From: Candidatus Heimdallarchaeota archaeon
Lineage (GTDB): Archaea; Asgardarchaeota; Heimdallarchaeia; JABLTI01
Reading direction: 5' to 3'
NCBI GenBank assembly: GCA_018238155.1
Contig: JABCTZ010000046.1
Coordinates: 318,784-382,783, forward strand
Length of the DNA stretch: 64,000 bases
The number at the start of each line of letters is the position of its first letter. Positions within the stretch are counted from its first letter, which is position 1. Positions 8,464-25,081 of the stretch are shown here, piece after piece. A program made the position numbers and the translations under genes. The notes beneath the pieces were generated by a model. The model worked only from the letters and a program-made list of their open reading frames with translations. It was not told the DNA's origin and ran no database searches.

Positions 8464-8467
8464 TCCC

Positions 8468-10429
8468 TCACTCCATTTTCAAGTTTAAATGAAATGTATT
8501 TTCACCGAATATTATTCTATTTAAGTAAAATAAAGTTATCGGAACTCCTCTATAACCCATTGGTCCCAAATTCCAACAATTGAAAGGGTTTGAAGAAACC
8601 TCATCTACACTTAATGATAAGTTTCGATTTAATAAATCAAAATCGTTACCATCTATTGAACCTTTATCACCTATGGTCAAAACAGAATGATTTTTAGCCA
8701 ATGAATTTTGTATTAAATCTATAACCACTGTTTTTGTTACAGTTTTTGGTATTATATCTATAGAATGATCTGAAAGTACCATTTTCACTTCTTTATTTTG
8801 TCCAAGTTTTGTATTTAAGTATGAAAATATCGATAACAAATCACTATTTGGAGCTATTATTGTGAGTTGAGTAGGTTTATGTCTTATATCTTTTTCAAAT
8901 AGACTAAGATATTTATCATCACAAAGTAGTTCATTAATTTCATTAACATATGCATTTATTGAAATGTTATCGAAATCAATCTTTTCTGAAAGAAAACCAC
9001 AAATACTCCCATTATGATAACCAACAAAAATTTTCTCATGATATTCCTTTGGAATTTTCTCTATCAAGTCGCGGTTTAGAGAACCTCCTCTACCTGAAGC
9101 AATTCCTATCTTGATATTATGATCTATTAAATGTAGAAGATTGCTAACAACATCATCAGCGATACCAATTTTTCTTCTTTCAGAGGGACATAATGTGCCA
9201 TCAAAATCAAAAACTATTCCACCGAATTTTTCTTCTGTAAAACTGGCTTGGTAATCATCGAATGATTTTTTCCAAAAATTTCGAACTTGTTTAGTTGAAA
9301 AATCAAAATTTGGGAATTTTCTTAAAATATATGCTCTATTTGGTTCTTTTCTCCATAATTGATATTTGCTCAATTCTGAAGTTGTTACTGACATTCGATA
9401 TAGTTTCCTACCAAATTCAGGAATACCTTGACTTGAAGGGTCAATATTTCTATAAACACCTGCAAGATTTACTAAAAAATATGTTTTTATAAGTAAATCA
9501 ATAGCTGATAATGGACCTTCAGAATATTTGGACTTAAAAATGTATTTTGGAATTTTCTCAGGAATTAATGAGAAAGTTCGTTTGAGATTTTTTTCCGATT
9601 TTCTATCAGCAAATGCTAACAAAGAAGATATTTGCCATTTTTTATCAATCCAATTATGTCTTCCATGTCCAAAATTACGATAATCGCTCAGACTAACATT
9701 TCCTAATGCTGATTCACTATATTTTGATTCCAAATCAATTGCAGCAAATCTACCCCAATTCCCAAATAATACAATAATTGTATCTTTACAAATAATATGC
9801 TTCAAATTATTTCTTAGTGTGTTTTCAAATTCATCAAAATCTTTTGAATCCAAAGCAAACTCATCAAATTCCTTTGGTAGGAAAAGTATTTTCTTATTTG
9901 ATTTGTAATAAGCTCGTAGAAATAAAATACTAAATATTAATATAGAATTAACAGCTAGAAAACCATCTTTTTTTGTAGGTAATTTGAAATTAAAATAAGA
10001 AATAATTGTGTAATTAGAGAATTTGGTTATAATAGGTGCATTTGGATTTGCACACACTACAATAATGTGTTTATGCTCTCTTGCTACTGCTTCATTCAAA
10101 ACGTTAATTATATCAGTATTTTTACCAGAAGTTGTAATTAAGATAACAGCTGAATTTGAGGAAGTATTGGTACTAATATAATCCAAAGGTGTCATTGCTT
10201 TGGCAATTTGACTTGTAAATTCACTATGTAATGAAGAAATATAGCTGGCAACTGAATAAGAACCACCAGAACCAATAACAATTAAAGATTCCTCTTTAAT
10301 CTTCTTAAGATACTTTATCAAATTATCAATAGGGTATTTTGTTGCCCAATTATATGCTTTATCCATTTCCTGTAATCTCGTTCTATATTTAGACATTATT
10401 AGCACCAAATTTTTTCTCTCTTCTAGCAC
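8468..10429 (-). CDS. Double-SIS sugar isomerase domain fused to a Cof-type HAD phosphatase
   Basis: SIS motifs VIGSGGS, ITTSGKNTD, DLESKYSE..NFGHGRH; HAD motifs DFDGTL, ASGRG, GDKG..GND. Real start may be the ATG at 10396. Confidence 0.8.
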   Translation of the reverse strand: MLEERKNLVLIMSKYRTRLQEMDKAYNWATKYPIDNLIKYLKKIKEESLIVIGSGGSYSVASYISSLHSEFTSQIAKAMTPLDYISTNTSSNSAVILITTSGKNTDIINVLNEAVAREHKHIIVVCANPNAPIITKFSNYTIISYFNFKLPTKKDGFLAVNSILIFSILFLRAYYKSNKKILFLPKEFDEFALDSKDFDEFENTLRNNLKHIICKDTIIVLFGNWGRFAAIDLESKYSESALGNVSLSDYRNFGHGRHNWIDKKWQISSLLAFADRKSEKNLKRTFSLIPEKIPKYIFKSKYSEGPLSAIDLLIKTYFLVNLAGVYRNIDPSSQGIPEFGRKLYRMSVTTSELSKYQLWRKEPNRAYILRKFPNFDFSTKQVRNFWKKSFDDYQASFTEEKFGGIVFDFDGTLCPSERRKIGIADDVVSNLLHLIDHNIKIGIASGRGGSLNRDLIEKIPKEYHEKIFVGYHNGSICGFLSEKIDFDNISINAYVNEINELLCDDKYLSLFEKDIRHKPTQLTIIAPNSDLLSIFSYLNTKLGQNKEVKMVLSDHSIDIIPKTVTKTVVIDLIQNSLAKNHSVLTIGDKGSIDGNDFDLLNRNLSLSVDEVSSNPFNCWNLGPMGYRGVPITLFYLNRIIFGENTFHLNLKME

Positions 10430-10516
10430 ATATATTTGATTGTTATTATTAAAACCAATCGAATGTATCCTTGTTTATTTTACTTAAATAGAGCTAATAA
10501 AAAATAAAATTAGTGA

Positions 10517-10843
10517 TTATTTGAAACATCTTTTGAGCTCATTTTCAAATTCACTTGATGATGAAATAATATGAAACATCTCTAATATCCAAGCAATTTC
10601 ATTTAAATCTTCAAAAGTGATTTTTTGAGATATCTTAGATAATTCTTCAGAATATTTTGTGAAATTGTTTACTCTAGTTGTTTGTATAGAGTCATAAATA
10701 GTTTCTATTAGTTTTATCAGACAATCAAAATCTACGTTAGTTTTATTTCGCTGTTTACCGATTATTGATCCTACTGTTTGCCAAATTTCATTGTCTTCAA
10801 AAACAGGTTTCTTGTTTTTGGTTTTGCTGCACCTCTTTCCTTC
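10517..10843 (-). pseudogene. About 108-codon open frame with no ATG/GTG/TTG start near its 5' end (remnant or non-canonical start)
   Basis: Manual translation ...KKPVFEDNEIWQTVGSIIGKQRNKTNVDFDCLIKLIETIYDS...ELKRCFK*; a GAGGTG SD-like sequence lies near its 5' end. Confidence 0.4.
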
Positions 10844-10882
10844 TCAATTGAAGATGTAGAGCAAAAACCAGTTTCTGGTTCA

Positions 10883-12247
10883 TTAGAATAAACAATTATG
10901 AATAGCTTTCACTGTTTCTTTAACATCTTTTCTTCTAACAATAAAATAGTAAGCGATTTCAGATGCTCCTGCGGAAATCATTTCGATATTAATCCCTTTT
11001 TGTGCAACTGCTGTAAACACATTGGCAGCCATTCCTGAAGTTTTCATTAAGCCCTCTCCAACAATACCAATTAAGCTAATATCCTCCTCCAAAGTGATAT
11101 TTTGAATAGTATCACCAATTAAATCAGTAATAACCTTGTAGCTCTTCTGTGAATCATTTGGATTGATGAGCAAATTAATGCATGTTTGTGAAGTAATAAT
11201 TGAATAAATATTAACATCAATTTTTGCTAATAGATTACCAATATCACCTATGATACCGGGTTTGAATCCAACACCTGGACCTTGAATTCGCAAAACGGCT
11301 ATATTGTTATTATATGTTACACTTTTGATAGAAGGTTTGCTCTTTTCAAATTTTGATAATATTATTGTTCCTTCGTTTTGTGGTTGAGAGAAATTACGAA
11401 TAGTAACATTTATCTTTGAGTCTATTAAAGGCTCTAAAGCTCTTGGGTGAAGTATTTTCGCTCCAAAATATGCAAGTTCAGCTGCTTCATAATATGATAA
11501 TTGATTGATTTTCTTTGCTGTTTTTACTATCGTAGGATCAGCACTCATAAATCCATCAACATTTTTCCAAAGAATGATTGTTTCAGCCTCTAATCCACAT
11601 GCTACTACTGTGGCACTATAATCTGAACCATTTCTACCGAAAGTGGTAATTTTATTATTTTCAGAACAACCAAAATATCCTGTTATAATCGGTGTAATTC
11701 CTTTTTGGATTTTAGGTAGAAGCTTTTGCTTCAAATTCTTCTTTACAACTGAAATATTAGCTGTTGCATTTTCAAAACAGGAATCTGTTATTATTCCTAT
11801 TGTATCTGCTTCAAAAGCAAGAGCAACATGATTTTTATCATTTAAAACCCCTGCTAAAAGTATAGCTGCAAGTCTTTCACCAAAACTCAAAATATGCATT
11901 TTAACTGAATCTGTCACTTCTTCTGTAAATGCTATTCCATAAAGTAATCGCTCTAATTTTACTATTTTGATATCTAAAGTATCAATTACTTCTTGTCTTA
12001 TGATATCATTAGTGATTATTTCATCAGCAAACTCCCTATGCTTTTTTCGGATGTTTTGAATAATTGGTTCAATATTACTTTCAGATTTTTGTGCGAACTC
12101 GATACCATTTAGCAATTCATTTGTAATGCCATTTACTGCAGAGACGACTAACACACAATCATCTTTCTCATTTTTAACTATCTCAACAACTTTCAGGAAA
12201 TCTGAAACAGAGCATAAACACCCACCACCGAATTTCATAACTTTCAA
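10883..12247 (-). CDS. lysC: Aspartate kinase
   Basis: VMKFGG, VVSAV, TFGRNGSDYSA, ELAYFGAKILHP; two C-terminal ACT domains. Confidence 0.95.
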   Translation of the reverse strand: MKVMKFGGGCLCSVSDFLKVVEIVKNEKDDCVLVVSAVNGITNELLNGIEFAQKSESNIEPIIQNIRKKHREFADEIITNDIIRQEVIDTLDIKIVKLERLLYGIAFTEEVTDSVKMHILSFGERLAAILLAGVLNDKNHVALAFEADTIGIITDSCFENATANISVVKKNLKQKLLPKIQKGITPIITGYFGCSENNKITTFGRNGSDYSATVVACGLEAETIILWKNVDGFMSADPTIVKTAKKINQLSYYEAAELAYFGAKILHPRALEPLIDSKINVTIRNFSQPQNEGTIILSKFEKSKPSIKSVTYNNNIAVLRIQGPGVGFKPGIIGDIGNLLAKIDVNIYSIITSQTCINLLINPNDSQKSYKVITDLIGDTIQNITLEEDISLIGIVGEGLMKTSGMAANVFTAVAQKGINIEMISAGASEIAYYFIVRRKDVKETVKAIHNCLF

Positions 12248-12285
12248 TCTAAATCCACCTCTGAAAAACTCAACCCTCTTGTAAT

Positions 12286-13335
12286 TTACTTAAGAAACCC
12301 CTCTTGTAAAGCATATTCAGCATTTAGAATAGATGCTCCCGCAGCACCTCTTAGAGTGTTATGTACTAGCAAGAAGAAATTCACACTAGTACCTTTTCTA
12401 CGAACACGACCAATTGTAATTGCCATGCCCAAATTTTTCTCTGTAAGTAAATCACGAGTGGGTTGTGGTCGATCATCCTCAAGTGTGAGTATTATTGGAT
12501 TCATGGGGGCAGTAGGGAATGTGTTAGTATCTAATCCATTAAATGATTTGAAGGATTGATTAATTTCTTCCAAAGAAACATCTTCATTAAAATTTACTAC
12601 AATACTCTCGAGATGACCTTCTAAGACAGGAACTCTTGCACAACTTGCATTGATATCAAAATCAGCATCTTGTATCTGCTCACCATCAAATGTTCCAAGT
12701 ATCTTCTTTGTTTCTAACTCCATTTTCTCTTCTTCACCAGATATGAATGGTATGACATTACCTAAAATATCCATGGAAGCAACACCTTTTTTCCCTGCTC
12801 CTGAAATAGATTGATAGGTTGTAACATAAACTTCTCTAATGTTAAATTTTTGAAGTGGACGCAAACCGAATACTAAACCAGAAGTAGAGCAATTTGAATT
12901 AGTAACAATGAACCCGGTACCAAATTTTTGCTTGCCTACTAATTGTAAATGATTGGCATTTATTTCAGGTATCAAAATTGGAACATCAATATCCATTCTG
13001 TGAGCATTTGTATTGGAAAAAACTGCTATGCCTTCTTTTGCCAGATCTATTTCTATATCATAAGCTAATTTGCTAGGAAGTGCACTAAAAACAATATCAA
13101 GATTCTCTCGAGATATTTCTTTGTCCGTATTGTTAACGATAATAGTTTCTCTGACATTTTCAGGAATATCATTTCTCATATACCAATCAACAATCTCACT
13201 ATACTTTCTCCCGGCAGATTTCTTGGAAGCAGTTAAACTAACGATTTCAAAGTGAGGGTGTGAACCTAATAAGCTCACAAATCTTTGACCGACTATTCCG
13301 GTAGCACCAAGTATTCCAATACGATATTTCTTCAT
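12286..13335 (-). CDS. asd: Aspartate-semialdehyde dehydrogenase
   Basis: ILGATGIVGQRF, NSNCST, QSISGAG, RVPVLEGH, HNTLRGAAGA. Confidence 0.95.
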   Translation of the reverse strand: MKKYRIGILGATGIVGQRFVSLLGSHPHFEIVSLTASKKSAGRKYSEIVDWYMRNDIPENVRETIIVNNTDKEISRENLDIVFSALPSKLAYDIEIDLAKEGIAVFSNTNAHRMDIDVPILIPEINANHLQLVGKQKFGTGFIVTNSNCSTSGLVFGLRPLQKFNIREVYVTTYQSISGAGKKGVASMDILGNVIPFISGEEEKMELETKKILGTFDGEQIQDADFDINASCARVPVLEGHLESIVVNFNEDVSLEEINQSFKSFNGLDTNTFPTAPMNPIILTLEDDRPQPTRDLLTEKNLGMAITIGRVRRKGTSVNFFLLVHNTLRGAAGASILNAEYALQEGFLK

Positions 13336-13352
13336 TTTGTTTACTTTTCTCC

Positions 13353-14069
13353 TTAATTTTTTGTTATCTTTTCATAGTCCTCTTTAGCCAGAATAATAGG
13401 AGGAATGTTTCCCCATGAACAAAGGATATCATCATAAATGACCATCATGCCATCAATTCCATCGGTCATTTTTTGTTGCATAATTGAGAGAATGACTGTT
13501 TGGCTCTTTTCCATTATCTCATTTCCTAAAGCAGTAGCCATAGCATCAGCAAGAATAACATCATCACAAACAACTATTGCTGCATCTGCATTTCCCAGAC
13601 TAATAGAAGGTCCCACTGTTGCAGAAGAGGTACAGATTCCCATTATCTTTTCACTTGGTTCTATTTTGAATCCAAGATTATTGAATTCGTTATTCAATCC
13701 AGAATATATCCCAACTGTAATTGGTGCATCAATATGACAAGCAATATCTCCCCCATTATCTACTACAATATAATCTGCTCCAGCATCTTTTACTGCTTTC
13801 ACAGCAAAATACGCAATTGCTCCTGCAACACAAGCCATAGGACCAACATCTGCAATCGCACTTGCAGTGAACATTCTATCTATGATTTCTGGCACATTGT
13901 TATTTGGTTTATACGATAGAAAAGTTGTACCAAATAAAGCATCTCTCAAAATATACTCTTTAAGAACATCCCTTTGGAAAAGGATCTCATCTTTTACTAC
14001 TTTCAGATACTTGTCTTCAGCCAGAATAGTAACAATTGTTTCCTCAATTCGTAAATGATGTCTTTTCAA
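13353..14069 (-). CDS. UPF0280/ApbE-like protein linked to sulfide assimilation
   Basis: VGPMACVAGAIA, VDNGGDI, GICTSSATVGPSISLGNAD. Confidence 0.85.
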   Translation of the reverse strand: MKRHHLRIEETIVTILAEDKYLKVVKDEILFQRDVLKEYILRDALFGTTFLSYKPNNNVPEIIDRMFTASAIADVGPMACVAGAIAYFAVKAVKDAGADYIVVDNGGDIACHIDAPITVGIYSGLNNEFNNLGFKIEPSEKIMGICTSSATVGPSISLGNADAAIVVCDDVILADAMATALGNEIMEKSQTVILSIMQQKMTDGIDGMMVIYDDILCSWGNIPPIILAKEDYEKITKN

Positions 14070-14082
14070 GTTCTCATCTCAT

Positions 14083-15435
14083 TCAATAGTGTAAAATAGC
14101 TTGTTGTGGACAAACAGCATCACATTGATGACAAGCTGTACATTTTGTTGTGTCAGCGCTAATTTTCCAATCAGACATTCGTACAAAAACATTTGATGGG
14201 CAATAAGCAATACAAAGACCACAATGGATACATCGTTTTTCGTCTCTGAAAACAACTGCATTTTGCACTTGTCGTTTAGGAAAGCTAAACGTTTTCTCTT
14301 TCATTTCAAGCTTTTTCTCTTTCATTGGATTACATCCACCACTAGTTTGCAATGGCTGAACAGCTTGACTAAGAAAGAATTTTCTCTGAGCAATTCTATT
14401 CTTCAAAATTGATGCAATTTCTTTTGCTTTTACGAGACTTGAAATTGAAGCAGTTTTTACATCCTTACCTGATAGTTCTACAATACCAGATTGTAAGTCA
14501 GCATAGCTTGTTGTTTTCATCGAGGGTCTATCTCGAGACTGTATAGAATAATCAATAATATCAGTCAAAATTTGTTCATTTCTCTTAGCTGTACTTTGAG
14601 CAAGTGAAGCATTCAAAATTGGTATGGGAACACCTATCCCCACATATAATGAACAACCGTAGCCTTGAATTGAAGCACCACGTATAAATTCTGGAGTCAT
14701 TTCCTTTAGATTACCTTGTACCATAAGGGTGCTGAAATGAGCATCAGGACTATGCTGCGTGCCATTTCCAGTAATATGACCGGTTCCTCCACCTAGAAAA
14801 ATCCGTGTCCCAAGACCAATTGTTTGTAGAGATGGGTCATTGTTTATTGGAGAAAGTTCACCTGCACCTGAATAGTTAACATTTCCGTGATTCGGTAACA
14901 ACTGACCCATATAAGTAAACAAAGTTTTATTTCCAGAATTTGTTGCAGCATTGTATCGTTCATAGCAATTTCTAGGATTGCTCATAACTGCTTGATTGAG
15001 GTCTGCAAGGGTTATTTCTGTCTCTAACCTTTCTCGAGGATAACAGTCAGTTTTAGATCCTGTTGCTTTTAAGTAGATTGTTTTACCTCGAACAAGATCC
15101 TCTATTACATGTCCTCCACCGTATTTATCACCCAATATTGTTGAAGTTTGTGTTGCACCAATATAAGCATCTACAGCAGCAACGCCTGAATATGCTTCAA
15201 CATCATTTAACCAAGTTTGAGTCATTTTTATAGGAGGATCTGCATGACCAAAGTTTAACCAAACTCCAGAAGAACACATTGCCCCAAAAGTTCCGGTAGT
15301 AACAACATCAACTTCTTGGGCTGCTTTTTCTGCTCCGATTTCTGATACAATATCTTTCATTTCTTCAGCAGTAATAACCACTGCATTTCCTTCAGCAATC
15401 TTCTGGTTGATTTCAGCTATTGTTTTATCTGTCAA
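14083..15435 (-). CDS. L-aspartate-semialdehyde sulfurtransferase (DUF39 homocysteine synthase) fused to a 2x[4Fe-4S] ferredoxin
   Basis: VDVVTTGTFGAMCSSG, YGGGHVIEDLV, NPRNCY; C-terminal CIHCGLCIAYCP and CTACHQCDAVCP. Confidence 0.9.
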   Translation of the reverse strand: MTDKTIAEINQKIAEGNAVVITAEEMKDIVSEIGAEKAAQEVDVVTTGTFGAMCSSGVWLNFGHADPPIKMTQTWLNDVEAYSGVAAVDAYIGATQTSTILGDKYGGGHVIEDLVRGKTIYLKATGSKTDCYPRERLETEITLADLNQAVMSNPRNCYERYNAATNSGNKTLFTYMGQLLPNHGNVNYSGAGELSPINNDPSLQTIGLGTRIFLGGGTGHITGNGTQHSPDAHFSTLMVQGNLKEMTPEFIRGASIQGYGCSLYVGIGVPIPILNASLAQSTAKRNEQILTDIIDYSIQSRDRPSMKTTSYADLQSGIVELSGKDVKTASISSLVKAKEIASILKNRIAQRKFFLSQAVQPLQTSGGCNPMKEKKLEMKEKTFSFPKRQVQNAVVFRDEKRCIHCGLCIAYCPSNVFVRMSDWKISADTTKCTACHQCDAVCPQQAILHY

Positions 15436-15441
15436 AAAAAA

Positions 15442-16242
15442 TCACCCTCGCGGAATATTTGAATTCACCATTTGTTCGGAGGGAGTGTTATTCTCATTTT
15501 GAATCTGTTTTGCAAAATCTACAATTGCCATTTTCAATGGAGAGGTCTCAGGGAGGTCAACTAAGGGTGTCCCTTCTTCATCATAAATCGTTGCTTGGTC
15601 ATCTTGAGGTAAAGCTAAGATATTGTTAAAACCTAACGTCCTTGCATTTGTTATTATCTTTTCAGTATTCTCCTTACGAAGTTTGTTTATAACAAGAAGC
15701 TGTTTTTTAATGGGAATGTTAAGTTCAATAACAAGGGAATGAATCCTTTTTGCAGTCAATAATCCTCGTTTGCTGGGATCTGAAATAATTATCAGCAAGT
15801 CAACATCTCGAGTTGTCATTCTACTAAGATGTTCCATACCCGCTTCATTATCAATTACAACATACTTGTATTGTTCAGAAAGCACATCTAAATGCCTACG
15901 TAAGAGATTGTTCACGAAGCAATAACAGCGCTTGCCTTCTGGTCTTCCCATTGCAAGGAGGTCAAATGAGTCTGTCTCAATTAGTGTTTGATGAAGCAAG
16001 TATTCAATTAGTCTGTCTTTTGGCATAGAATCGAATTTAGGATTTCTTTTCAGCGCTTCCTCTCGAATATCGGCAATGCTACTTACAACTGAAATACCTA
16101 GAACTTCATTCAAATTCATACTTGGATCTGCATCTACAGCTAATAATGCTTCTTTCTCATTTATTAAAGAATCAATTAATAAACCCGTAAAGGTCGTTTT
16201 ACCTGTTCCTCCTTTTCCTGCGACCGCTATTGTATAAGTCAA
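15442..16242 (-). CDS. acsF: CooC/AcsF-type nickel-insertion ATPase
   Basis: GKGGTGKT, VDADP, GRPEGKRCYC, DNEAGMEHLSR. Confidence 0.9.
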   Translation of the reverse strand: MTYTIAVAGKGGTGKTTFTGLLIDSLINEKEALLAVDADPSMNLNEVLGISVVSSIADIREEALKRNPKFDSMPKDRLIEYLLHQTLIETDSFDLLAMGRPEGKRCYCFVNNLLRRHLDVLSEQYKYVVIDNEAGMEHLSRMTTRDVDLLIIISDPSKRGLLTAKRIHSLVIELNIPIKKQLLVINKLRKENTEKIITNARTLGFNNILALPQDDQATIYDEEGTPLVDLPETSPLKMAIVDFAKQIQNENNTPSEQMVNSNIPRG

Positions 16243-16251
16243 TTTTTCTAA

Positions 16252-17271
16252 TCACCTCAATGAATAATTTTCTCTTATTTTATCGGATAAACCTCTAGTC
16301 ATTTGGAATACTGCTAATGCGGTATCTTCATCTCTAGCTCCTAATCCACAAGCAGGAGTTATCAATGATGATTGAATGATCTTCTCTTGAGAGATATTGA
16401 TACTATTTTCAAGTGTAGCTAACAGCTCCTCGAATTTTGAGAAAAGAGATTCGACTGTTTCTCTCTCAATTTGATCTTTTGCTGTAGGAACTAATCCCCA
16501 AGCGATTACACCATCTCTTTTGAGGAAATTTGACAATTCTTTTCGATATAAAAGAAAATTATCACTGTATTCGTAAGCATCAAAAGATATGATTTGGATA
16601 TCGGTTTCTAACAAGAAAGACCAATCTGTATTTGCACAACAATGAACACCTATTTTGCTTTTTGAACTAGAGAGAAGTTCATTTAATGCGTTCTTTATTT
16701 TTTGTTGATCTAGAGAAACAATTGTTGTGCCCATCAAAGACATATAAGGTTCATCAATAAGGATCAACGTTTCTTTTCCGGCTTGAGAAAGAAATCTCTC
16801 TTGCCATCGAATAATACTCGAGAGAGTTTTTACGGTAACATCCATTAATAATTCATTATAGATTATTGGTTTGCCATTTTCATCATTAAGATGCAAACCA
16901 AAACTTACTGGTCCTGTTACATGCCCTTTAATTGCTAAACAGTCTTGAAGATCTAATTCGAGAAAATCATAGATTGATGCAGAATATTCTTTACTTATAG
17001 CAAGTTCCCTTTCAGAGTTAAGCACATATTCAGAGTAAAAAGATTCTATGGATTCAATTTGTGTAGAATCGATATTTACACTTCCATTATTATCTACAAA
17101 ACCAGGGAAGTGTTCAGTAAACATTGTATACATGTTTTCTTTTGAATTTCTATTTGGCAGCTGTGGCCAGAAAGGTAATTCTTTACAGTAATTCTTCACA
17201 AATTCACATGCTTTTTTTGAATCTTTGAATGGTAAACTTCCAATGCCCGTTGGGAGACAGTTAAACTTAAT
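16252..17271 (-). CDS. Core (folate-independent, methyl-corrinoid-dependent, MesB-like) methionine synthase; probable ATT start at 17271
   Basis: Frame extends 5' of the ORF-track start to IKFNCLPTGIGSLP; WPQLP, KGHVTGP, DEPY, Zn ligands GVHCC and TPACGL; no N-terminal folate-binding half. Confidence 0.85.
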   Translation of the reverse strand: MKFNCLPTGIGSLPFKDSKKACEFVKNYCKELPFWPQLPNRNSKENMYTMFTEHFPGFVDNNGSVNIDSTQIESIESFYSEYVLNSERELAISKEYSASIYDFLELDLQDCLAIKGHVTGPVSFGLHLNDENGKPIIYNELLMDVTVKTLSSIIRWQERFLSQAGKETLILIDEPYMSLMGTTIVSLDQQKIKNALNELLSSSKSKIGVHCCANTDWSFLLETDIQIISFDAYEYSDNFLLYRKELSNFLKRDGVIAWGLVPTAKDQIERETVESLFSKFEELLATLENSINISQEKIIQSSLITPACGLGARDEDTALAVFQMTRGLSDKIRENYSLR

Positions 17272-19162
17272 TTTTGATTCCTCCTTTCTTAACTAATAAT
17301 TCAATTGTTGGGAATAGTTCAAGATTTGTATGTGGAATAAAAGAAGCAAGTGTATACTCATCCATGAACTCATAATTGTTGGATAATTCGATATTTGTAA
17401 CAGTTCGAGATAGCTCTTCAGCTTCTATCTGTTTCTCTCTGGATAGAAGAGCAATTCTGGCACCTCCAAGTGAGCCATTTCCAAGGAATTTGATCCGTTC
17501 ATGAGGGATATCCGGAAATAGTCCAATTGTTATCGAAGCTTTGATATTTAGATTGTTGCCAAACCCTCCAGAAACATAGAAGGAATCAAGATCATCAAAG
17601 GATAGACCAAATGATTTTAGCAAGATTAAATAACCTGCATAAAATGCCCCTTTAGTTTTCAAAAGATTTGAGATATCATATTCTGTTAATATAATGTCTT
17701 TTCCTGTTTGAGTTTCCGAACCTTCTAAGAGTAGATATTCTAAACCATGTTCTCCCTTTCGAATACGTCTATTCCCACCCATCTTCAATCTCCCTGCTTT
17801 AGTAAGAACATTGGCTCTGAATAATTCAGCAAGAATATCTACTAAACCTGAACCGCATATGCCTGTTGGTTTCCCTTCACCTATGACAGAAAAAACAGGA
17901 TCCAATGATAGGTAATCTAGAGATACCTTTTCGATTGCACCTACTGCAGCTCTCATACCACACTGTACTTCTGCTCCTTCGAGAGCAGGTCCCGCGGGTA
18001 CGGAACATGATAGAATCCAAGAGCTACATCCAAGAACTATTTCTCCATTTGTTCCAATATCAACTAACATGCTTGGTTTTTCTTTCAGATGTAATTCAGA
18101 GAGGAGCATATTAGATACGATATCCCCACCAACATAGCTTGAAACACAAGGAAGAATGTAAACAAATGCTGAAGAAGCAATATTTAAACCTAATTTACTA
18201 GCTTTGATTTTTGGCAGATGTCTAAAAACCGGAGTATACGGTTCCTTCCAGATATAGGAAGGATTTACTTTGAGTAATAAATGACTCATAACAGTATTTC
18301 CCGAGATAGAGACAGCTTTGATATCATTAGAATCCACTGAGAAACCTTTGATAAGGTTATTAATATCGTTTATAAGAAGCTCTTGAATTTTCTTCAGATT
18401 TTGTTCTGAAGAAGATGCAAAATGTATTCGAGTGATCACATCTTCACCGTAAATCATCTGACTATTGATTGCTGTAGTTGTATCAATGATTTCTCCTGTA
18501 GATAGTTTCAGAAGATTGATTGCTATTGTTGTGGTACCAATATCAATTGCTAAACCTAACAATTCTTGGTTTTTCACTTTAGATATTTCAGATACTTCTA
18601 CGAATCCTTGAACAATACTCTCGAGAGTAACTTCTACTTTCCAATTATTTTCTCTCAATAATTGAGGAAGTTTTTGAAGCAAAGCAAAGGGTATAGATAT
18701 CTTACTTTCAGAGTAATGTTTATTTAATTCTGCTAGAAGCCTGTCCATATCAGAGAGATTGCTGTAATTTTTTGGTGGAGCGATATTAACAATAATTTGT
18801 TTGATTGAAGGATTTATTTTTATTTCAGAGCCAACACACTTCACGAGTATTTTTTGATTTGTAACAATACTTTCATTTGGAACGTAGACTTTCGCATTCC
18901 CTTTCACTTTTGTTTGGCAAGCTAAACAATAACCTTGATCTAGTTCTTCTTGAGTGAATATTTTCTCATGAAAAATGCCTTTTTTGGTTATTTTTCCTGA
19001 TAATACCAGTACAACACATTTTCCACACTTTCCATGTTCACCACAGGGAATATTAAGAATAATACCTGCTTTCTTTGCAGCTGTTAGGATGGTCTCTCCC
19101 AAAGGTATTTCTATACTTTGATTATTGGGTTGAAATATAACTGAAACCATTTTATCAACCAT
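17267..19162 (-). CDS. acsV: Reductive activator of corrinoid protein (RACo/AcsV; [2Fe-2S] plus ASKHA ATPase)
   Basis: CGEHGKCGKC..LACQ, DIGTTT, DIGTNGE, AGPALEG, GICGSG. Start placed at the TAATG overlap with the upstream stop. Confidence 0.88.
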   Translation of the reverse strand: MVDKMVSVIFQPNNQSIEIPLGETILTAAKKAGIILNIPCGEHGKCGKCVVLVLSGKITKKGIFHEKIFTQEELDQGYCLACQTKVKGNAKVYVPNESIVTNQKILVKCVGSEIKINPSIKQIIVNIAPPKNYSNLSDMDRLLAELNKHYSESKISIPFALLQKLPQLLRENNWKVEVTLESIVQGFVEVSEISKVKNQELLGLAIDIGTTTIAINLLKLSTGEIIDTTTAINSQMIYGEDVITRIHFASSSEQNLKKIQELLINDINNLIKGFSVDSNDIKAVSISGNTVMSHLLLKVNPSYIWKEPYTPVFRHLPKIKASKLGLNIASSAFVYILPCVSSYVGGDIVSNMLLSELHLKEKPSMLVDIGTNGEIVLGCSSWILSCSVPAGPALEGAEVQCGMRAAVGAIEKVSLDYLSLDPVFSVIGEGKPTGICGSGLVDILAELFRANVLTKAGRLKMGGNRRIRKGEHGLEYLLLEGSETQTGKDIILTEYDISNLLKTKGAFYAGYLILLKSFGLSFDDLDSFYVSGGFGNNLNIKASITIGLFPDIPHERIKFLGNGSLGGARIALLSREKQIEAEELSRTVTNIELSNNYEFMDEYTLASFIPHTNLELFPTIELLVKKGGIKN

Positions 19163-20511
19163 TATTTTTTCCTCCAAATTTTGTTCAAATAATAAGCAAT
19201 ATCTGCTGAATCTGCAGGTCCAACAAGAACTTTCCATGAAGACGCATCCTCAATTTCTGAGGACATTGGAGAAAGAAAACCAGGGATGATGATTGTATTA
19301 TGGTCTACTTTTGAAGTAAGGTTCTCAGAATTTATTGCCTCAGCAATCTTCTCTGCTGATAATTTATCTGCAGCATAAGCTGTTAGAACAGATGTACCTT
19401 CTGTATCTAAAACAAGTAAATAGCTAGGGTAACCACATGATTCGATATCATTTGAAACGGTGAAATAAGTCAATGAAAAATTAGTTGTAAGAAATACAGG
19501 TGAATTCTTATCAACTTCACCAAAGGTGTATACTCCAGGATCTACTTGTATTGGTTTTTGAGGGTCTGTAAAGATGTTTTGACGTAAAACTAATAGAGGT
19601 GCCAATTGATTGAGTGCATTATCACTCAGCACCATTATTGAAGAATATTTTATTGATAATAGACCCGCAAGTAATATTTCTTGTGCAAACTCTTCTTGGG
19701 AGTGTTTAAACGGAAAACTAATAATTGGATAACCAAAATCACGTTTTTTGTTGTAAACAGCATTCCATCGTATCAAAATTTGATTTTCTATTGTCTCTTG
19801 AATATTACTTCCTGTACAATCCAACACTAGATCTTTAATTCCTTGTTTTTTAGCTAATGAAACTAACTGTACTAATCCATCAATCCCTTTTTGTGAGGAT
19901 AGAATAACTGATGTTTGATATTTTTCCGCTAATCGCAAAATCTCCTGCAGATTGTCCTCTCTTCCAAAACCAATTAACACTTGAGAATTACTAAGTAATT
20001 GTAGAGCCTCTTCTAATACTTCTGCTCTAACACTAAGAAGACAAATTGGTAATCCAGTTGCATTCTGAACATTTTTCACCAATTTGACGAATGGTTCTTT
20101 TTTCTTGGAATCATTAGATAAAGCAATCATATTTGTTGAAAGTTGATCTGCAAGGCGCTCTATTGATTTCTTCTTAATTTTCCTCTTAATGGATTCTTCT
20201 GAATCTAAATCTGAAATCATTATACAAAGAACTGTTTCGTTAAAGAATTTCTTTTCGTGACGATAGAATACAGTTTCACCACCAAAATGTATTTCTTCGT
20301 TCCCTCTTTTTGTAGTAATTTCTTTAACAGGAGGTAAAGTTGCTTCATCTAATTGAGTTTTAATTTCATCTGCTAAATACGGGCATTCAGATGCTTTTGC
20401 ATTTTTTTGTGCTAATCTCATTGCAAATGCTAAACATGTAGGCAGTCCACATTCTCCACAATTTGTTTTCGGAAGCAATTTATAGTAATCGAGTGTATTA
20501 GACATTCTCAA
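19162..20511 (-). CDS. acsC: Corrinoid iron-sulfur protein large (gamma) subunit
   Basis: LPKTNCGECGLPTCLAFAM..CP, IFTDPQKP, TTNFSLTYF, SVLTAYAA. Confidence 0.93.
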   Translation of the reverse strand: MRMSNTLDYYKLLPKTNCGECGLPTCLAFAMRLAQKNAKASECPYLADEIKTQLDEATLPPVKEITTKRGNEEIHFGGETVFYRHEKKFFNETVLCIMISDLDSEESIKRKIKKKSIERLADQLSTNMIALSNDSKKKEPFVKLVKNVQNATGLPICLLSVRAEVLEEALQLLSNSQVLIGFGREDNLQEILRLAEKYQTSVILSSQKGIDGLVQLVSLAKKQGIKDLVLDCTGSNIQETIENQILIRWNAVYNKKRDFGYPIISFPFKHSQEEFAQEILLAGLLSIKYSSIMVLSDNALNQLAPLLVLRQNIFTDPQKPIQVDPGVYTFGEVDKNSPVFLTTNFSLTYFTVSNDIESCGYPSYLLVLDTEGTSVLTAYAADKLSAEKIAEAINSENLTSKVDHNTIIIPGFLSPMSSEIEDASSWKVLVGPADSADIAYYLNKIWRKK

Positions 20512-21384
20512 TCATACTCCAATTGTTTTTCGGAAAAGAGCCAACGATTCTGGATGTCTAAAAACAAGCAAATCGCCTCCAGCAGCATAGAGAGATGCAG
20601 CTGTTGATGCTTCCCATAAAAATCCTCGAGGAGCAATAGGGCCCCAATCGGGATATTCAAATGCTGTTTCTCTTGCCCGCCATGCATCTTGCACGAAACA
20701 AATCATTGGTGAGGAAAGCATTTCATCCCCAGATAATGCTAAGGCTCGGATTCGTTCCATCGCAGAGAAAGTATATTCCAATCCATAACCTAAACAAGCA
20801 ACCATCGGATCGATTACAATTCTCTTTAGTGGTAGACCAAAATCAGATAGCAGTATATTCAATTGCTTTGCAATATTCACATCAATTGGAGATAAAGCTA
20901 CAATACAATGATTATATGCAAGAGCTATAGCTGTAATTGACTTGTATGTCTCAAGCTCAGCAGCACATAGTAGTAAATTGTATCCCTGCCCTAATTCCCC
21001 ACAAAGGTTAAGTATTGGTTGATCTTTTCCTACTTCGCCTGGACCGGAAATAATTAATGGGATAGAAATCTCTTGTAAAATATCCGGAAGATAATTGGTG
21101 ACATTAGATTCAGTAGAGAAATTTATGTGTAATGCATCTATCTTGAATTTTCTTTCACATAATTTTGCCCATTCAACCAGATTATCATATTGATCTTTGT
21201 ATGGATCATTTACTGTATTAGGGAATGCTAATCCACTATCTGAGATATGTAATGCTAATTTGGGTTTGTAATTTGGATCGAGAAATGGAAGGGTGGTTTG
21301 TCCACCTAAACTAATAGAGTTATTTTTTGAACCAAGAGTAACTTTGGCTATATTCCCATTAAAGGATAACTTTTCAAGACTCAT
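20512..21384 (-). CDS. acsD: Corrinoid iron-sulfur protein small (delta) subunit
   Basis: SPIDVNIAKQLN, LGYGLEYTFSAMERIR. Confidence 0.92.
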   Translation of the reverse strand: MSLEKLSFNGNIAKVTLGSKNNSISLGGQTTLPFLDPNYKPKLALHISDSGLAFPNTVNDPYKDQYDNLVEWAKLCERKFKIDALHINFSTESNVTNYLPDILQEISIPLIISGPGEVGKDQPILNLCGELGQGYNLLLCAAELETYKSITAIALAYNHCIVALSPIDVNIAKQLNILLSDFGLPLKRIVIDPMVACLGYGLEYTFSAMERIRALALSGDEMLSSPMICFVQDAWRARETAFEYPDWGPIAPRGFLWEASTAASLYAAGGDLLVFRHPESLALFRKTIGV

Positions 21385-21395
21385 TTCATATCCTC

Positions 21396-23474
21396 CTAAA
21401 AAATTGAATCCATTTTCAATGCCGGATGTTTTACTCGGTCAAGGAAACTCATTAGATCATCTAAAGATTGGACTAAGTCTTCATCAGCTATTTTCTCAAT
21501 CAACCCTGGAGCAAGATCTTCAACTCGATCGTGTAGAAACGATTTGAGTTCTTTAGGCATCCAAACTATGCGCTGTATTCCCCCCTCCGCTAACAGGAAT
21601 TTCTCAGAAACAATATAGTTTTTCCCTATACCAATAAATCCTGGAGATTGTACTCCTCCGCCCACAGTTCCTGCAAGAGTGCTAAAGGTAATACCTAGTG
21701 GTGTTGTTCCTGAGTATTCTCGAGGAACAATCATTATTCCATTTGCTTCAGGTATCACTGCAGCTATACATTCAAAACAACCACAAGATGTGAGAGGATT
21801 ATTCATAATACTATAAAGACAAATATCATCTATTGCTCCATGAGATTCTTTGCGAACGTATTGATTCACTCCTGCCCATCTACCTAGTTTAGCATCTAGT
21901 TGTTCACCAACAGAAACGGGTTGATTACCACCTGTAGGATTAATTTCAAAACTAGTTTTAGCATCTAACCAATTGACTGCTCCACATAAGCCAGTTCTTT
22001 CGGGAGAAATAATGCAAACATGATTTGGTGCGAAAGATTGACAGAGAAGACAAGAATAGAAAGTTGATACAGATTCATCCACTAAATTCTTCAGACGGTT
22101 ATCTCTTAAAAGATAGCTTTCTTTCGCTGTTGGTAAAAGCTCCTCAACTTTTGGCAGGGTAGTATAAAGCTTGACTTGAACTTTATCAACAATGCTAGAA
22201 AATAGGGAATGGATTTTGGAATAAATTATTACCCCTAGATGTCTAATTTGGAATCCTTTAGCAACAGCTTCTTTACTTATTCGGAACCAAATGAGATCAC
22301 GTTGAGCATTGTGCCATAACCCATCGGCGAAGTTAATGAAATGATGGATTTGTCTTTCAAAAACAGGCTCGAAATCTGATTGCATTTTTTTACCGGCAAC
22401 TTCTACAATAATTGCGATAGGAAGACTGGTACCTTCCTGAATATCTTTTATCTCAGGACCAATAACAGATATTTCTCCATCGTTTACTTCATCCAAAGGT
22501 TTTGTTTGTAGAAATTCAAAGGCAAGAGTTCGTCCTCCACCAAATTCAACATAAGTGTCTGGTTTTCGAATTGCTTGCCCTTCAAAAGCAAAACTATAAT
22601 TAATTGGGATGGGAATATCGTCAATAATTGGTTTAATATCTCTTAGAGCAAGACTCTGATCCACTAATTCCTTTCGCTCTTGATCTGTAAAAGTAGGTGA
22701 CAAGTAATCGATAAATGGAATGCCTGTTGCTTTTAATCCTGCAGAAATCGTCTGTAATAGATTTGTTTTCTCGCCCATAAATATAACAAATGCAGGTATT
22801 TTTTCTCCCAAATAAGCTATTAATGCTTCACTATCGCCGGGTTTCACTCCTCCAAATGATAAAGCTAAACGAATAGCAAGGTTTACTGCATGAGTAAATG
22901 CATAAAATTCATCTCCTAAGGGAACAACTAAACATTCTAAACCTGAATGTACTTTAGCTTCAAATAATTGTTTGGCTATCCCTCCAACAAATAGTGAAAG
23001 AATATTTCTCTTTTGAAAATCACTGACTAAATTCTTAACATCCTCGTTTGAATTTGCTTTACCAACAACAATTGCTAATCCGGCTATTGAACCATCAACA
23101 AGAGGAACGCCTAGCTTTCGAAAAATAGCATCAGGAATGAATCCGGTAAATGGTTGAGTGAATTTTTGATTTTTACTAAATTGTACACTCTCAATTATCT
23201 CAATAAAAACTAATGAGAACAAACCCATTTGTGTAACAGTAATTTCAACAGTATTATTTATTTCTTTTATTAGTGAATTTAGAAATGTCTTTAGGTGATC
23301 AGCAGTAGCTATTTTCTCGTTGAAAATGCTATAAATTGTTGGAAGATAATAGCCTGTTTCAGGGAAGGAAATGGTCATTTCCCCCTCTAGTTGATTCACA
23401 ACAGTTTTTGCATTCTCAAACAATTCCGTAAACCCTAGCTTGATTTGTTCTTGGTACAATTTGCGATTATTCAT
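21396..23474 (-). CDS. acsB: Acetyl-CoA synthase, bacterial-type long form
   Basis: A-cluster ligands FYSCLLCQSFAPNHVC..LCG and TSCGCFE intact; N-terminal domain FPETGYYLP / GVPLVDG, which short archaeal CdhC lacks. Confidence 0.93.
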   Translation of the reverse strand: MNNRKLYQEQIKLGFTELFENAKTVVNQLEGEMTISFPETGYYLPTIYSIFNEKIATADHLKTFLNSLIKEINNTVEITVTQMGLFSLVFIEIIESVQFSKNQKFTQPFTGFIPDAIFRKLGVPLVDGSIAGLAIVVGKANSNEDVKNLVSDFQKRNILSLFVGGIAKQLFEAKVHSGLECLVVPLGDEFYAFTHAVNLAIRLALSFGGVKPGDSEALIAYLGEKIPAFVIFMGEKTNLLQTISAGLKATGIPFIDYLSPTFTDQERKELVDQSLALRDIKPIIDDIPIPINYSFAFEGQAIRKPDTYVEFGGGRTLAFEFLQTKPLDEVNDGEISVIGPEIKDIQEGTSLPIAIIVEVAGKKMQSDFEPVFERQIHHFINFADGLWHNAQRDLIWFRISKEAVAKGFQIRHLGVIIYSKIHSLFSSIVDKVQVKLYTTLPKVEELLPTAKESYLLRDNRLKNLVDESVSTFYSCLLCQSFAPNHVCIISPERTGLCGAVNWLDAKTSFEINPTGGNQPVSVGEQLDAKLGRWAGVNQYVRKESHGAIDDICLYSIMNNPLTSCGCFECIAAVIPEANGIMIVPREYSGTTPLGITFSTLAGTVGGGVQSPGFIGIGKNYIVSEKFLLAEGGIQRIVWMPKELKSFLHDRVEDLAPGLIEKIADEDLVQSLDDLMSFLDRVKHPALKMDSIF

Positions 23475-23520
23475 AGAAGCGTTTTTATTGGATTCTATTT
23501 ATAATATTTTGTGAGAGTAT

Positions 23521-23536
23521 TATTCCAATTGGAATA
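23521..23536. promoter_or_regulatory. Perfect 16-bp palindrome, putative operator of the HTH-CBS regulator
   Basis: TATTCCAATTGGAATA in the 80-bp divergent intergenic region, next to a TATA-like ATTTATAA (23497-23504). Confidence 0.65.
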
Positions 23537-23554
23537 TTTGGGATATGGCAAAAA

Positions 23555-24130
23555 ATGTTTCCAGATTTGTCTGAAATTAAACGAAGAAGGAAAATATTGG
23601 GACTAACTCAAAAAGAATTAGCTGAAATTGCTGATGTTAGTCAATCTCTGATAACAAAAATCGAAAAAGAGATGATTAGTCCTTCGTATCACTTGGTTAT
23701 TAAAATCTTTGAGAGTATTAGAGATTTGGAGAACGAAACTAATCAAAAAGCAAAGGATATTATGTCTTATCCAATTGTTACAGTATCTCCTGATGATACT
23801 TTGGAGAATGTTACGATGGTAATGCGAAAACATGCTTTCTCTCAATTACCAGTTTTAAACTCAAAAGATTCATGTATCGGAAGTATCAGCGACCGAATAA
23901 TAATTAGTCTTGTATCAAAGTCACTTGATGAGAAATTTGATTTTGATTCGGTAGCAGATCTTAAAGTAAAAGAAGTAATGGGTGATTCTTTTCCAGTTAT
24001 ACCATCAAAAACACCTCTAAACGCAATTTCTACATTATTGCAAACAGTGCCTGCAGTTTTAGTGATGGAAGGTAGAGAAATAATGGGAATTATAACACGA
24101 GCAGACATGTTCGAGATCTTCATAAAATAA
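23555..24130 (+). CDS. XRE-HTH plus CBS-pair transcriptional regulator
   Basis: RRKILGLTQKELAEIADVSQSLITKIE followed by two CBS domains. Confidence 0.9.
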   Translation: MFPDLSEIKRRRKILGLTQKELAEIADVSQSLITKIEKEMISPSYHLVIKIFESIRDLENETNQKAKDIMSYPIVTVSPDDTLENVTMVMRKHAFSQLPVLNSKDSCIGSISDRIIISLVSKSLDEKFDFDSVADLKVKEVMGDSFPVIPSKTPLNAISTLLQTVPAVLVMEGREIMGIITRADMFEIFIK

Positions 24131-24197
24131 TCTATTGTTGGTATTCATTCAAAGCTATTTTTCTTATTTATTATTCTTAACTAGGTAAAAAAATGAG

Positions 24198-24286
24198 TGT
24201 GTCTCCGAGTAACTATGATCAGTCCTTATCGGGTGCTAGCCAAGCATTGGTCCCGACTCAACTTGTCGGATTTCTTCACAGACACA
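24198..24286 (-). ncRNA. Probable box C/D guide sRNA targeting 23S rRNA (H69 and H70-71 region)
   Basis: Terminal stem TGTGTC/GACACA; k-turn GTGAAGA/TCGGA; guides antisense to CTTGTCGG and GTAACTATGA, which I recall as conserved 23S segments; internal stem GTCGGG/CCCGAT. Confidence 0.65.
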
Positions 24287-24439
24287 TATAACCTTTCAAG
24301 CTAATCTCTCAAAAGCTTTTCTAAACATATACATTAAATATTAAAGAAAAAAAGACTTTAGATTTAATTTAACTAGGACAAGCTATAATAACGTGTATTG
24401 CTATATTTCATGTAATGAACAAAGGAGCTGAATTTCATA

Positions 24440-25081
24440 ATGACCAATGATACAAACAACGATTCAAAAGTTCATATGGAAATATCTGAAGTAATGACTT
24501 CAACTGTTCATACTATTTCTCCTAGTGAATCTGTAGAAGCAGCTGCAAAGAAAATGCTAGAACATAAAGTTGGTAGCATAATAATACAATCAAAAGAAGT
24601 TAAACCGAAACCTTTGGGTATTATAACAGAACGTGATATTGTTACTCGAGTAGTCGCCATTGGAAAGAATCCTGCAAAAATACCTGTTGATGAAATAGCT
24701 ACTCGTCCTGTTATCACAGCTCCTCCATCCCTAGATGTTGCTGAAGCAATGTCATTAATGGCTCGTTTAAATATTAGAAGATTAATTGTTGTTGAAGGAA
24801 ACAATGTTAGTGGTATTTGTACCTATCGAGATCTATTAAGAGTTGCTCCAAGTTTAATTGAAGTAGCATTTGAATATGAAAAAATTGGTTTTAGAAAAAA
24901 ACAACATCCAAATGAAATCGACACTGTATATGAAGATTATGACAAAGATTCAGAGCTAAATAATCAAGATTTAACTCTTGGATTCTATTGTACGATGTGT
25001 GGTGACAGGTTTGATGACGCTCCTTTTGGAGATGACGATCAACCATTATGTAGTGATTGCTTTGCTTCTCGAGACAATTAA
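24440..25081 (+). CDS. CBS-pair protein with C-terminal Zn ribbon
   Basis: Two CBS domains (GIITERDIV); CTMC..CSDC. Confidence 0.85.
   Translation: MTNDTNNDSKVHMEISEVMTSTVHTISPSESVEAAAKKMLEHKVGSIIIQSKEVKPKPLGIITERDIVTRVVAIGKNPAKIPVDEIATRPVITAPPSLDVAEAMSLMARLNIRRLIVVEGNNVSGICTYRDLLRVAPSLIEVAFEYEKIGFRKKQHPNEIDTVYEDYDKDSELNNQDLTLGFYCTMCGDRFDDAPFGDDDQPLCSDCFASRDN

Follow-up and report, generated by a model that had tools for sequence, protein, structure and literature searches.

A ten-gene operon of a Heimdallarchaeia genome as a probable transferable module for methionine synthesis from aspartate, sulfide and acetyl-CoA

Introduction

Genes of the acetyl-CoA synthase (ACS) system are routinely taken as Wood-Ljungdahl pathway markers in the Asgard reconstructions used for models of eukaryogenesis. 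What do such genes serve when they share an operon with genes of methionine biosynthesis? This question is raised by a stretch of 64,000 nucleotides from Candidatus Heimdallarchaeota archaeon (GenBank assembly GCA_018238155.1, contig JABCTZ010000046.1, positions 318,784 to 382,783), referred to here as the window, in which ten tightly packed minus-strand open reading frames (ORFs) at 10883-23474 combine acs genes with genes for homocysteine and methionine synthesis. We consider it likely that these genes represent a self-contained module, capable of transfer, for the de novo synthesis of methionine, which would take its carbon skeleton from aspartate, its sulfur from sulfide and its methyl group from acetyl-CoA, as in Dehalococcoides. 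This interpretation is preferred because it is the only one that uses all ten genes and also fits the genes that were found to be absent. The host genome (G000) is a 4.08-Mb metagenome-assembled genome (MAG; 90.7% complete, 5.9% contamination), in which the window lies on a 383-kb contig.

Operon organization and proposed pathway

Profile searches of the ORF translations gave the gene order acsB-acsD-acsC-acsV-mesB-acsF/cooC-like-DUF39/ferredoxin-UPF0280-asd-lysC, all on the minus strand, with neighbouring genes either 0-38 nt apart or slightly overlapping. An earlier, sequence-only reading had proposed ten co-directional, packed genes in this order, which these searches confirm. It had drawn the region from 10883 to 24130, of which 10883-23474 stands as the operon, while 23555-24130 belongs to a divergent plus-strand gene with HTH_3 and CBS domains. 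That the ten-gene cluster encodes no carbon monoxide dehydrogenase (CODH), no AcsE and no folate or tetrahydromethanopterin (H4MPT) enzyme was likewise found to be correct.

Four genes at the distal end would lead from aspartate to homocysteine. The last gene of the operon, lysC (10883..12247), encodes an aspartokinase (TIGR00657, 360 bits; AA_kinase) that carries ACT domains (ACT_9/ACT_7) and forms aspartyl phosphate, and asd (12286..13335) encodes an archaeal-type aspartate-semialdehyde dehydrogenase (TIGR00978, 423 bits; NF006416, 459 bits); together they are predicted to convert aspartate into aspartate semialdehyde (ASA). The gene at 14083..15435 encodes a homocysteine-forming enzyme of the DUF39/COG1900 family (PF01837 HcyBio, 480 bits, residues 18-355) fused to a 2x[4Fe-4S] ferredoxin domain (Fer4 motifs at 395-447). 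Between this gene and asd lies a UPF0280/COG2122 gene (ApbE-like; 13353..14069; NF003324, 279.9 bits at a cut-off of 275), an accessory of the DUF39 homocysteine pathway; no Pfam model matches the protein of the window, and its orthologues in related loci match PF27030 (AbpE_bact). Aided by the COG2122 protein, the DUF39-ferredoxin protein would produce homocysteine from ASA, sulfide and two electrons, with no homoserine intermediate. In Desulfovibrio and Methanosarcina, DUF39, a ferredoxin protein and COG2122 have been reported as genetically required for homocysteine synthesis, and homoserine was found to be no intermediate (PMC5764234). The use of ASA rather than homoserine is also suggested for the operon, since asd and lysC are co-operonic with DUF39 and homoserine dehydrogenase is absent in 11 of the 11 genomes of the genus, including the host. 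Asd was found in only one of these 11 genomes, namely the host, and only as the operon copy, which is evidence that ASA synthesis may exist in this organism for the pathway of the operon alone. With LysC also restricted to the operon and homoserine dehydrogenase absent, the term self-contained is literally true.

At the other end, the first gene, acsB (21396..23474), encodes a bacterial-type long ACS with an N-terminal domain (NF040764, 884 bits). Its product aligns with the solved ACS of C. hydrogenoformans (7zkj/1ru3) over 659 residues at about 50% identity (E 1.6e-191), and the alignment with 7zkj shows that the A-cluster motifs CLLCQSFAPNHVC...GLCG and SCGC are kept. Two genes follow for the corrinoid iron-sulfur protein (CFeSP) subunits, acsD (20512..21384; NF003376, 290.7 bits at a cut-off of 280; CdhD domain) and acsC (19162..20511; NF003195, 516 bits, likewise above the cut-off; FeS and CdhD domains). 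The product of acsV (17267..19162) is a predicted ATP-dependent reductive activase of the corrinoid protein (RACo), with a 2Fe-2S domain and an ASKHA domain (matches to Fer2, RACo_linker, Raco_middle and RACo_C_ter; NF040756, 591 bits); its longest ORF spans 17267-19237, and ATG 19162 is the likely start. Beyond mesB (16252..17271), a P-loop ATPase of the AcsF/CooC family (15442..16242; CbiA/AAA_31 domains) is predicted to insert nickel into the A-cluster of ACS. Its closest solved relative is CooC1 (3kje, E 8e-21), with which the MinD-type P-loop GKGGxGKT and the Cys-x-Cys metal motif (CYC) align; the label AcsF/CooC-like covers either subtype. The acs part of the operon fits a bacterial origin, because the nearest AcsB relatives outside the group of ten-gene cassettes are bacterial (Bacillota and Omnitrophota, 45-49% identity).

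In the proposed route AcsB would operate in the cleavage direction, converting acetyl-CoA and Co(I)-CFeSP into CH3-Co(III)-CFeSP, CO and CoA. MesB would then pass the methyl group from the AcsCD corrinoid protein to zinc-activated homocysteine, yielding methionine and Co(I), while RACo would re-reduce corrinoid that has been oxidised accidentally and the ATPase would load nickel into AcsB. The claim that one operon encodes the whole route from aspartate, sulfide and acetyl-CoA to methionine is supported by the family assignments obtained for all ten genes and by the operon-only occurrence of Asd and LysC. A look-up of sequencing runs for window 14000-23500 listed none, which is no proof that such runs are lacking.

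The core methionine synthase

MesB is a core methionine synthase, that is, one lacking the folate domain. Its identity is 39-44% (254-289 bits) with Dehalococcoidia, Anaerolineales and Firmicutes proteins that carry the NCBI name "methionine synthase". These make up the MesB/core-MetE group described by Deobald et al. (PMC7005905) and by Price et al. (PMC7857596), the latter using a similarity of at least 173 bits to D. mccartyi DET0516 as a mark. The zinc ligands described for MesB are an H-x-C motif, a D/E and a further C, accompanied by an N-terminal Ser that binds homocysteine (PMC7857596). Among 26 aligned sequences, G11-S12-x-P14 (in the N-terminal GIGSLP motif), H210, C212, D231 and C308 are invariant, and the spacing of the four ligands matches that of positions 214/216/235/311 in the published D. 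mccartyi MesB. An AlphaFold2 model built on the 26 sequences (pLDDT 92.9) found its top PDB folds among the cobalamin-independent MetE barrels (probability 1.0), followed by MesD and by MtaA/UroD-like proteins; for the MetE barrels, normalisation by the query gave a TM score of 0.59-0.66, and normalisation by the targets, which are twice as long, one of about 0.3. MesB is a single MetE-like barrel without the folate-binding N-terminal half, and AcsC and AcsD are encoded adjacently. A sequence search against solved structures returned nothing at E <= 0.01, and a predicted complex of MesB with the corrinoid domain of AcsC (residues 300-449) scored 0.00, which weighs neither way.

A different activity of this protein has been considered, in which it would act on another thiol, or demethylate a methyl thioether onto CFeSP, with a product other than methionine. 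Such an activity could be read from the lack of a Pfam family, from the weak NCBIfam matches (E 6e-11, to archaeal methionine synthases) and from the MtaA-like and UroD-like methyltransferases that come next after MetE among the folds; MesB-like paralogues without an assigned function were also noted by Price et al. (PMC7857596). It is nevertheless highly improbable, given the identity to Dehalococcoidia-type MesB, the H/C/D/C and Ser motif at the D. mccartyi spacing, and the position of MesB between the CFeSP/RACo genes and four homocysteine-pathway genes in 8/8 instances of the ten-gene order (see below).

The start of mesB deserves attention. The longest ORF opened by ATG, GTG or TTG (16252-17199, 315 aa) excludes the conserved N-terminus with the GIGSLP motif, which is encoded in frame upstream of the first such codon. 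The true start is likely the ATT at 17271, which gives a protein of 339 aa, because the arrangement GGAGG-N8-ATT is conserved and G004, the genome with the second instance of the operon in the class, has ATG at the same codon. GGAGG lies 8 nt 5' of this ATT in six loci (the window and five related ones), and the last base of the ATT doubles as the first base of the acsV stop codon (ATTAA or ATTAG). An N-terminally truncated MesB of 315 aa was rejected, the missing 24 residues being present in frame after the ATT. The acsC/acsV junction has the same design, with GGAGG-N8-ATG in TAATG and ATG 19162 overlapping the acsC stop (window 19160-19175, compared with 17267-17285 at mesB), and the likeness of the two junctions points to translational coupling along the operon. 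Gene callers mis-start mesB, resulting in products of 293 aa.

Distribution and acquisition of the cassette

The distribution of the operon was investigated in species-level genome sets of the genus (11 genomes, the host and ten congeners), the family (12), the class (83) and the phylum (400). Both CdhC (ACS) and HcyBio (DUF39) were found in the same 2/83 genomes of the class, the host and G004, and MesB of at least 50% identity in these two only among the 400 genomes of the phylum. ACS, DUF39 and Asd are each missing from all ten congeners. MetF is absent from 12/12 genomes of the host family and from 31/31 genomes of family f3, and G004 was found to have neither MetF, Mer and AcsE nor CooS; judged by its gene content, G004 independently provides a second example of an ACS accompanied by neither a methyl branch nor CODH.

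A check of synteny across genomes, which the sequence-only reading had put forward, was positive: the ten genes keep their order on seven further contigs (L011, L012, L013, L014, L040, L057 and a partly assembled contig of G004, on which the operon genes that were located follow a consistent order). The MesB proteins of these contigs are 43-73% identical to that of the window and the surroundings differ. As the same order recurs at such low identity, the predicted ten-gene unit is not a chance arrangement.

Comparison with the nearest congener (G077) revealed an empty site, where about 140 bp take the place of approximately 10899..24195 of the window; the cassette, made up of operon and regulator, thus measures about 13.3 kb. 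On the G077 locus L054, 13947-14007 aligns with window 10838-10898 and 14147-14600 with window 24196-24646, and the proteins flanking the cassette are 85-96% identical and collinear. Neither an integrase within the cassette nor, at its ends, direct repeats or att-like sites above the AT-rich background were seen. On the comparison with G077 the cassette is a discrete insertion, and the module is most likely transferable.

Could the cassette instead be a mis-binned or chimeric bacterial fragment? The nearest relatives of AcsB and MesB outside the cassette group are bacterial and the assembly contains 5.9% contamination, but the cassette lies inside a 383-kb contig of which both flanks are collinear with G077 at 85-96% protein identity, and the same cassette occurs in several MAGs labelled by NCBI as Heimdallarchaeota. 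The probability of an artefact is accordingly minimal.

Methyl supply in the host genome

Whole-genome searches of the host revealed no MetF, Mer, MtrH, Fhs, FolD or MetE, no pterin-binding MetH module, and no ACS or CFeSP beyond those of the operon, all ten proteins of which are single-copy and without paralogues. AcsE was judged to be absent since the only Pterin_bind proteins are dihydropteroate synthase (DHPS) and a DHPS-like TIGR00284 protein. No enzyme that forms a methyl-pterin was found. The sequence-only reading had proposed that the route is independent of folate and that these acs genes do not indicate autotrophy, and had named a full CODH/AcsE methyl branch at another place in the genome as a finding that would overturn it; the former is supported by these absences and the latter was not found, a lone CooS apart. 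The search that it outlined, for cooS/cdhA, acsE, metE/metH and metF, came out as expected for AcsE, MetE, MetF and the pterin-binding MetH module, but yielded one CooS and two S-methyl_trans proteins.

The upper part of a one-carbon pathway is present. Ftr and Mch genes are adjacent on contig C39 (41506-43482; L058 5007-6983) and a second, lone Mch gene is located on C11 (112697-113647; L059 6198-7148), which indicates an H4MPT-type one-carbon pool without Mer, whose upper branch would end before the methyl level. On contig C15, the DHPS-like TIGR00284 gene occurs together with a DmrX-like gene and GcvH.

The single CooS gene (TIGR01702, 732 bits) lies on contig C44, without the linkage to ACS of canonical systems. 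The neighbouring genes encode a lactate-permease-like protein, a metallo-beta-lactamase (MBL) hydrolase, a glycyl-radical enzyme and the activase of this enzyme; neither CooF nor CooC is encoded beside it. CooS also occurs in 5/10 ACS-less congeners, at 80-95% identity to the host copy and in G079 with the same neighbour, and is missing from G004. On this pattern CooS is an older, vertically inherited trait of the genus and independent of the operon, since congeners that lack ACS have it and one carrier does not. A role of CooS as the missing CODH partner of the cassette was rejected on the same grounds. The radical-SAM activase and the PFL-like glycyl-radical enzyme (755 bits) fall within the CooS region C44:22376-29808 (L061 7377-14808). 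The CO released by AcsB would be oxidised by the stand-alone CooS in the host and would escape in carriers that lack CODH. The idea that CO is fed to partner organisms is therefore weakened for the host, where export is doubtful because CooS is present.

The presence of CooS also permits a synthetic role for ACS, in which CooS would provide CO in trans, an unrecognised donor would methylate CFeSP and MesB would only side-tap methyl-CFeSP, as happens in genuine Wood-Ljungdahl organisms. The long N-terminal domain of AcsB is kept, and Ftr and the two Mch proteins form a partial H4MPT one-carbon pathway. A locus of GCA_043823195.1 ("MAG: archaeon"; L043) joins acs and mesB with CooS in the order acsD-acsC-RACo-mesB-cooC-cooS-acsB-asd-thrB-thrC-serA, with DUF39, NIL-ferredoxin, metF, metH-like and hom genes adjoining. 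It resembles the operon of the window in placing acs and mesB among genes of the aspartate family and methionine (MesB 39% identical), and differs in its gene order, in the CooS inside and in the nearby MetF and MetH-like genes, so it is not independent of CODH and pterins; it may be a locus with CODH that is related or ancestral to the ten-gene cassette. Given the CooS, MetF and MetH-like genes of L043, cleavage by ACS does not follow from mesB-acs clustering alone. We regard a synthetic ACS as unlikely, however: Mer, MetF, MtrH and AcsE were found in neither the host nor G004, G004 also lacks CooS, CooS is vertically inherited and present in ACS-less congeners, and 8/8 ten-gene instances pair the acs genes, in predicted co-transcription, with genes of homocysteine synthesis and never with CODH.

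A further source of methyl groups is suggested by a packed minus-strand cluster of six genes on contig C21 (90533-96356; L060 4533-10356), which encodes a HEAT-repeat protein, a GGR-like flavoprotein, a B12-binding corrinoid protein of 221 aa, an S-methyl_trans protein of 295 aa, a Met_synt_B12-like protein of 219 aa and an MttB-family protein of 487 aa (289 bits). By its composition it looks like a methionine synthase fed by methylated amines or betaine, without a pterin module. The host has two S-methyl_trans proteins, and the family is present in 11/11 genomes of the genus, ten of which lack ACS. In the congeners without DUF39, the C21-type system could serve only to re-methylate recycled homocysteine, to which the cassette would add net synthesis. 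The adjacency of the MttB-family gene to the corrinoid, S-methyl_trans and Met_synt_B12-like genes also suggests a link between methylotrophy and methionine in the operon, by which methyl groups from methylated amines or glycine betaine would reach a corrinoid protein via MttB and be assimilated into acetyl-CoA by ACS and CFeSP. There is little probability in this, as the C21 cluster is located on another contig and its S-methyl_trans family is found genus-wide irrespective of ACS, no methylcorrinoid:pterin methyltransferase or AcsE that could hand the methyl group to CFeSP was found, and the cassette is portable into unrelated backgrounds.

Several points speak against methionine synthesis by acetyl-CoA cleavage, and are taken together here. 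Direct methyl transfer from CFeSP to MesB has been shown experimentally in no organism (PMC7005905, PMC7857596), and L043 has CooS within its acs-mesB block and MetF and a MetH-like gene nearby. In the host, the coexistence of CooS with the AcsB N-terminal domain, which in bacteria docks on CODH, makes a CODH/ACS complex in trans conceivable, and the genus-wide C21-type system could be a second candidate for homocysteine methylation, so that MesB is not the sole candidate. A domain search detected no NIL domain in or beside the DUF39-ferredoxin protein, the predicted partner of DUF39 being a variant form with fused ferredoxin and undetected NIL. Finally, all absences reported here are probabilistic, being based on a MAG of the completeness and contamination given above.

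Comparison with known systems

The closest functional parallel is D. mccartyi, whose incomplete Wood-Ljungdahl route to methionine has acetyl-CoA split by AcsB/AcsCD with release of CO. In the account of Zhuang et al. (2014) given in PMC7005905, labelling showed methionine's methyl group to originate from C2 of acetate, and the organism lacks metF, acsE and CODH. In vitro, core-MetE/MesB works with methylcobalamin, and the step from CFeSP to MesB is hypothetical in D. mccartyi as well (PMC7005905, PMC7857596). The two systems share a bacterial-type AcsB with an intact A-cluster, CFeSP, a MesB-type synthase, the lack of MetF and AcsE, and an upper one-carbon branch that does not extend to the methyl level, represented by Fhs/FolD in Dehalococcoides and by Ftr/Mch in the host. 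They differ in gene arrangement, as mesB of D. mccartyi lies with metK and ahcY rather than with acs genes (PMC7005905), whereas here all parts, including DUF39, Asd and LysC, form one operon. They also differ in the Asgard host, the discrete insertion, the CooS and the second candidate homocysteine methyltransferase. The absence of CODH from the genome, typical of Dehalococcoides, holds for G004 but not for the host of the window, which has CooS on C44; similarly, the host has no MetE/MetH module but does have two S-methyl_trans proteins in addition to MesB.

In some methanogens mesB-acsC-acsD operons have been reported (Price et al. 2021, Fig 3B, PMC7857596). There too mesB adjoins the genes for CFeSP, an arrangement in favour of CFeSP as methyl donor; these hosts differ in having the full archaeal Wood-Ljungdahl/ACDS (acetyl-CoA decarbonylase/synthase) system to supply methyl-H4MPT, and their operons have not been described with acsB, RACo, DUF39, COG2122, asd or lysC. 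With the DUF39 pathway of methanogens and Desulfovibrio, the operon has in common DUF39, an Fe-S partner and COG2122 acting on ASA, as well as a homoserine dehydrogenase that is not needed and, in the present genome, absent. It is distinguished by the ferredoxin fused to the C-terminus of DUF39, by the undetected NIL domain and by its co-operonic asd, lysC and methyl-supply genes.

The canonical bacterial CODH/ACS cluster, for instance in Moorella and Carboxydothermus, has the order acsA-acsB-acsC-acsD-acsE-cooC. The operon shares with this cluster AcsB and its A-cluster ligands, both AcsC and AcsD, RACo and a maturase of the CooC type. It differs in the absence of acsA/cooS and acsE, the place of which is taken by amino acid genes, and in the genome-wide lack of a folate or complete H4MPT methyl branch. 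The combination of CODH with ACS and a complete methyl branch that defines the canonical Wood-Ljungdahl pathway was not found in the host genome.

Novelty and implications

The principle of the pathway is already known from the MesB/CFeSP route of Dehalococcoides and from the mesB-acsCD adjacency in methanogens (PMC7857596). A literature search, which covered few papers from subscription journals, found no earlier description of acsB with a methionine synthase in Asgard archaea or Heimdallarchaeia. What is new is the complete packaging in a single operon with the DUF39 pathway, asd and lysC, together with the discrete and patchily distributed cassette with its own putative regulator and operator, the Heimdallarchaeia host, the ATT-coupled mesB start and the evidence for an ASA synthesis dedicated to one pathway.

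The ten genes and the regulator represent a compact set for pterin-independent methionine synthesis, in which a whole amino acid pathway, genes of cofactor maturation and a regulator appear to move between archaea as one block. As every component is co-operonic and co-inherited as a unit, the operon may be regarded as the strongest comparative-genomic support yet for transfer from CFeSP to MesB. It also bears on the class closest to eukaryotes, where methionine synthesis is most likely the role of the acs genes described here. In anoxic sediments, carriers that lack CODH would act as minor net CO sources.

A more far-reaching proposal, which we put forward tentatively and with less than even confidence, is that the cassette, with operon, regulator and operator, is a horizontally mobile "methionine prototrophy island", sufficient on its own to make a methionine producer of a Heimdallarchaeon that lacks the entire aspartate-family pathway, with aspartate, sulfide and acetyl-CoA as the sole inputs. 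In the present host the two electrons obtained by CooS from the released CO would reduce the ferredoxin of DUF39 for reductive sulfuration, so that the module closes its redox loop. In that case, acs genes of bacterial type found in Asgard MAGs would be markers of amino acid biosynthesis and not of Wood-Ljungdahl autotrophy or acetogenesis.

Regulation and neighbouring features

The plus-strand gene at 23555..24130, divergent from acsB, encodes a protein with HTH_3 and paired CBS domains according to a domain search. A perfect palindrome, ATTCCAATTGGAAT, is found at 23522..23535, within the 80 nt of the divergent promoter region; this is its single occurrence in the window, where 0.09 occurrences are expected. 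The window and L011, L012, L040 and L057 all have the consensus ATTCC-NNTN-GGAAT upstream of acsB, and L013 has a near-match. Orthologues of the HTH-CBS protein are divergent and adjoin acsB in L011, L012, L013 and L014, and lie two genes away in L040, while the gene is missing from the empty site of G077. The conserved palindrome is thus a candidate operator, through which the HTH-CBS protein probably controls the operon. That its CBS domains sense an adenosyl ligand such as S-adenosylmethionine (SAM) is a guess.

To the left of the cassette, the host has two further insertions compared with G077 (window -2377 to 2771 and 3030 to 10514), separated by a tRNA block (2771-3030) that is 92% identical in G077; the neighbourhood of the cassette looks like an insertion hotspot. 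One of the two insertions contains an ORF of 1102 aa and two smaller genes, the other an AT-rich cluster of five genes (3140-10429). The noncoding flanks of the cassette (window 10514-10898 and 24196-24440) are 82-86% identical in G077 and contain no long ORF. Downstream of the regulator, two more CBS-domain proteins are encoded at 24440-25081 and 25199-25999, followed by pyrC (26006-27370); in contrast to the regulator, both proteins have conserved counterparts in the congeners and so fall outside the cassette.

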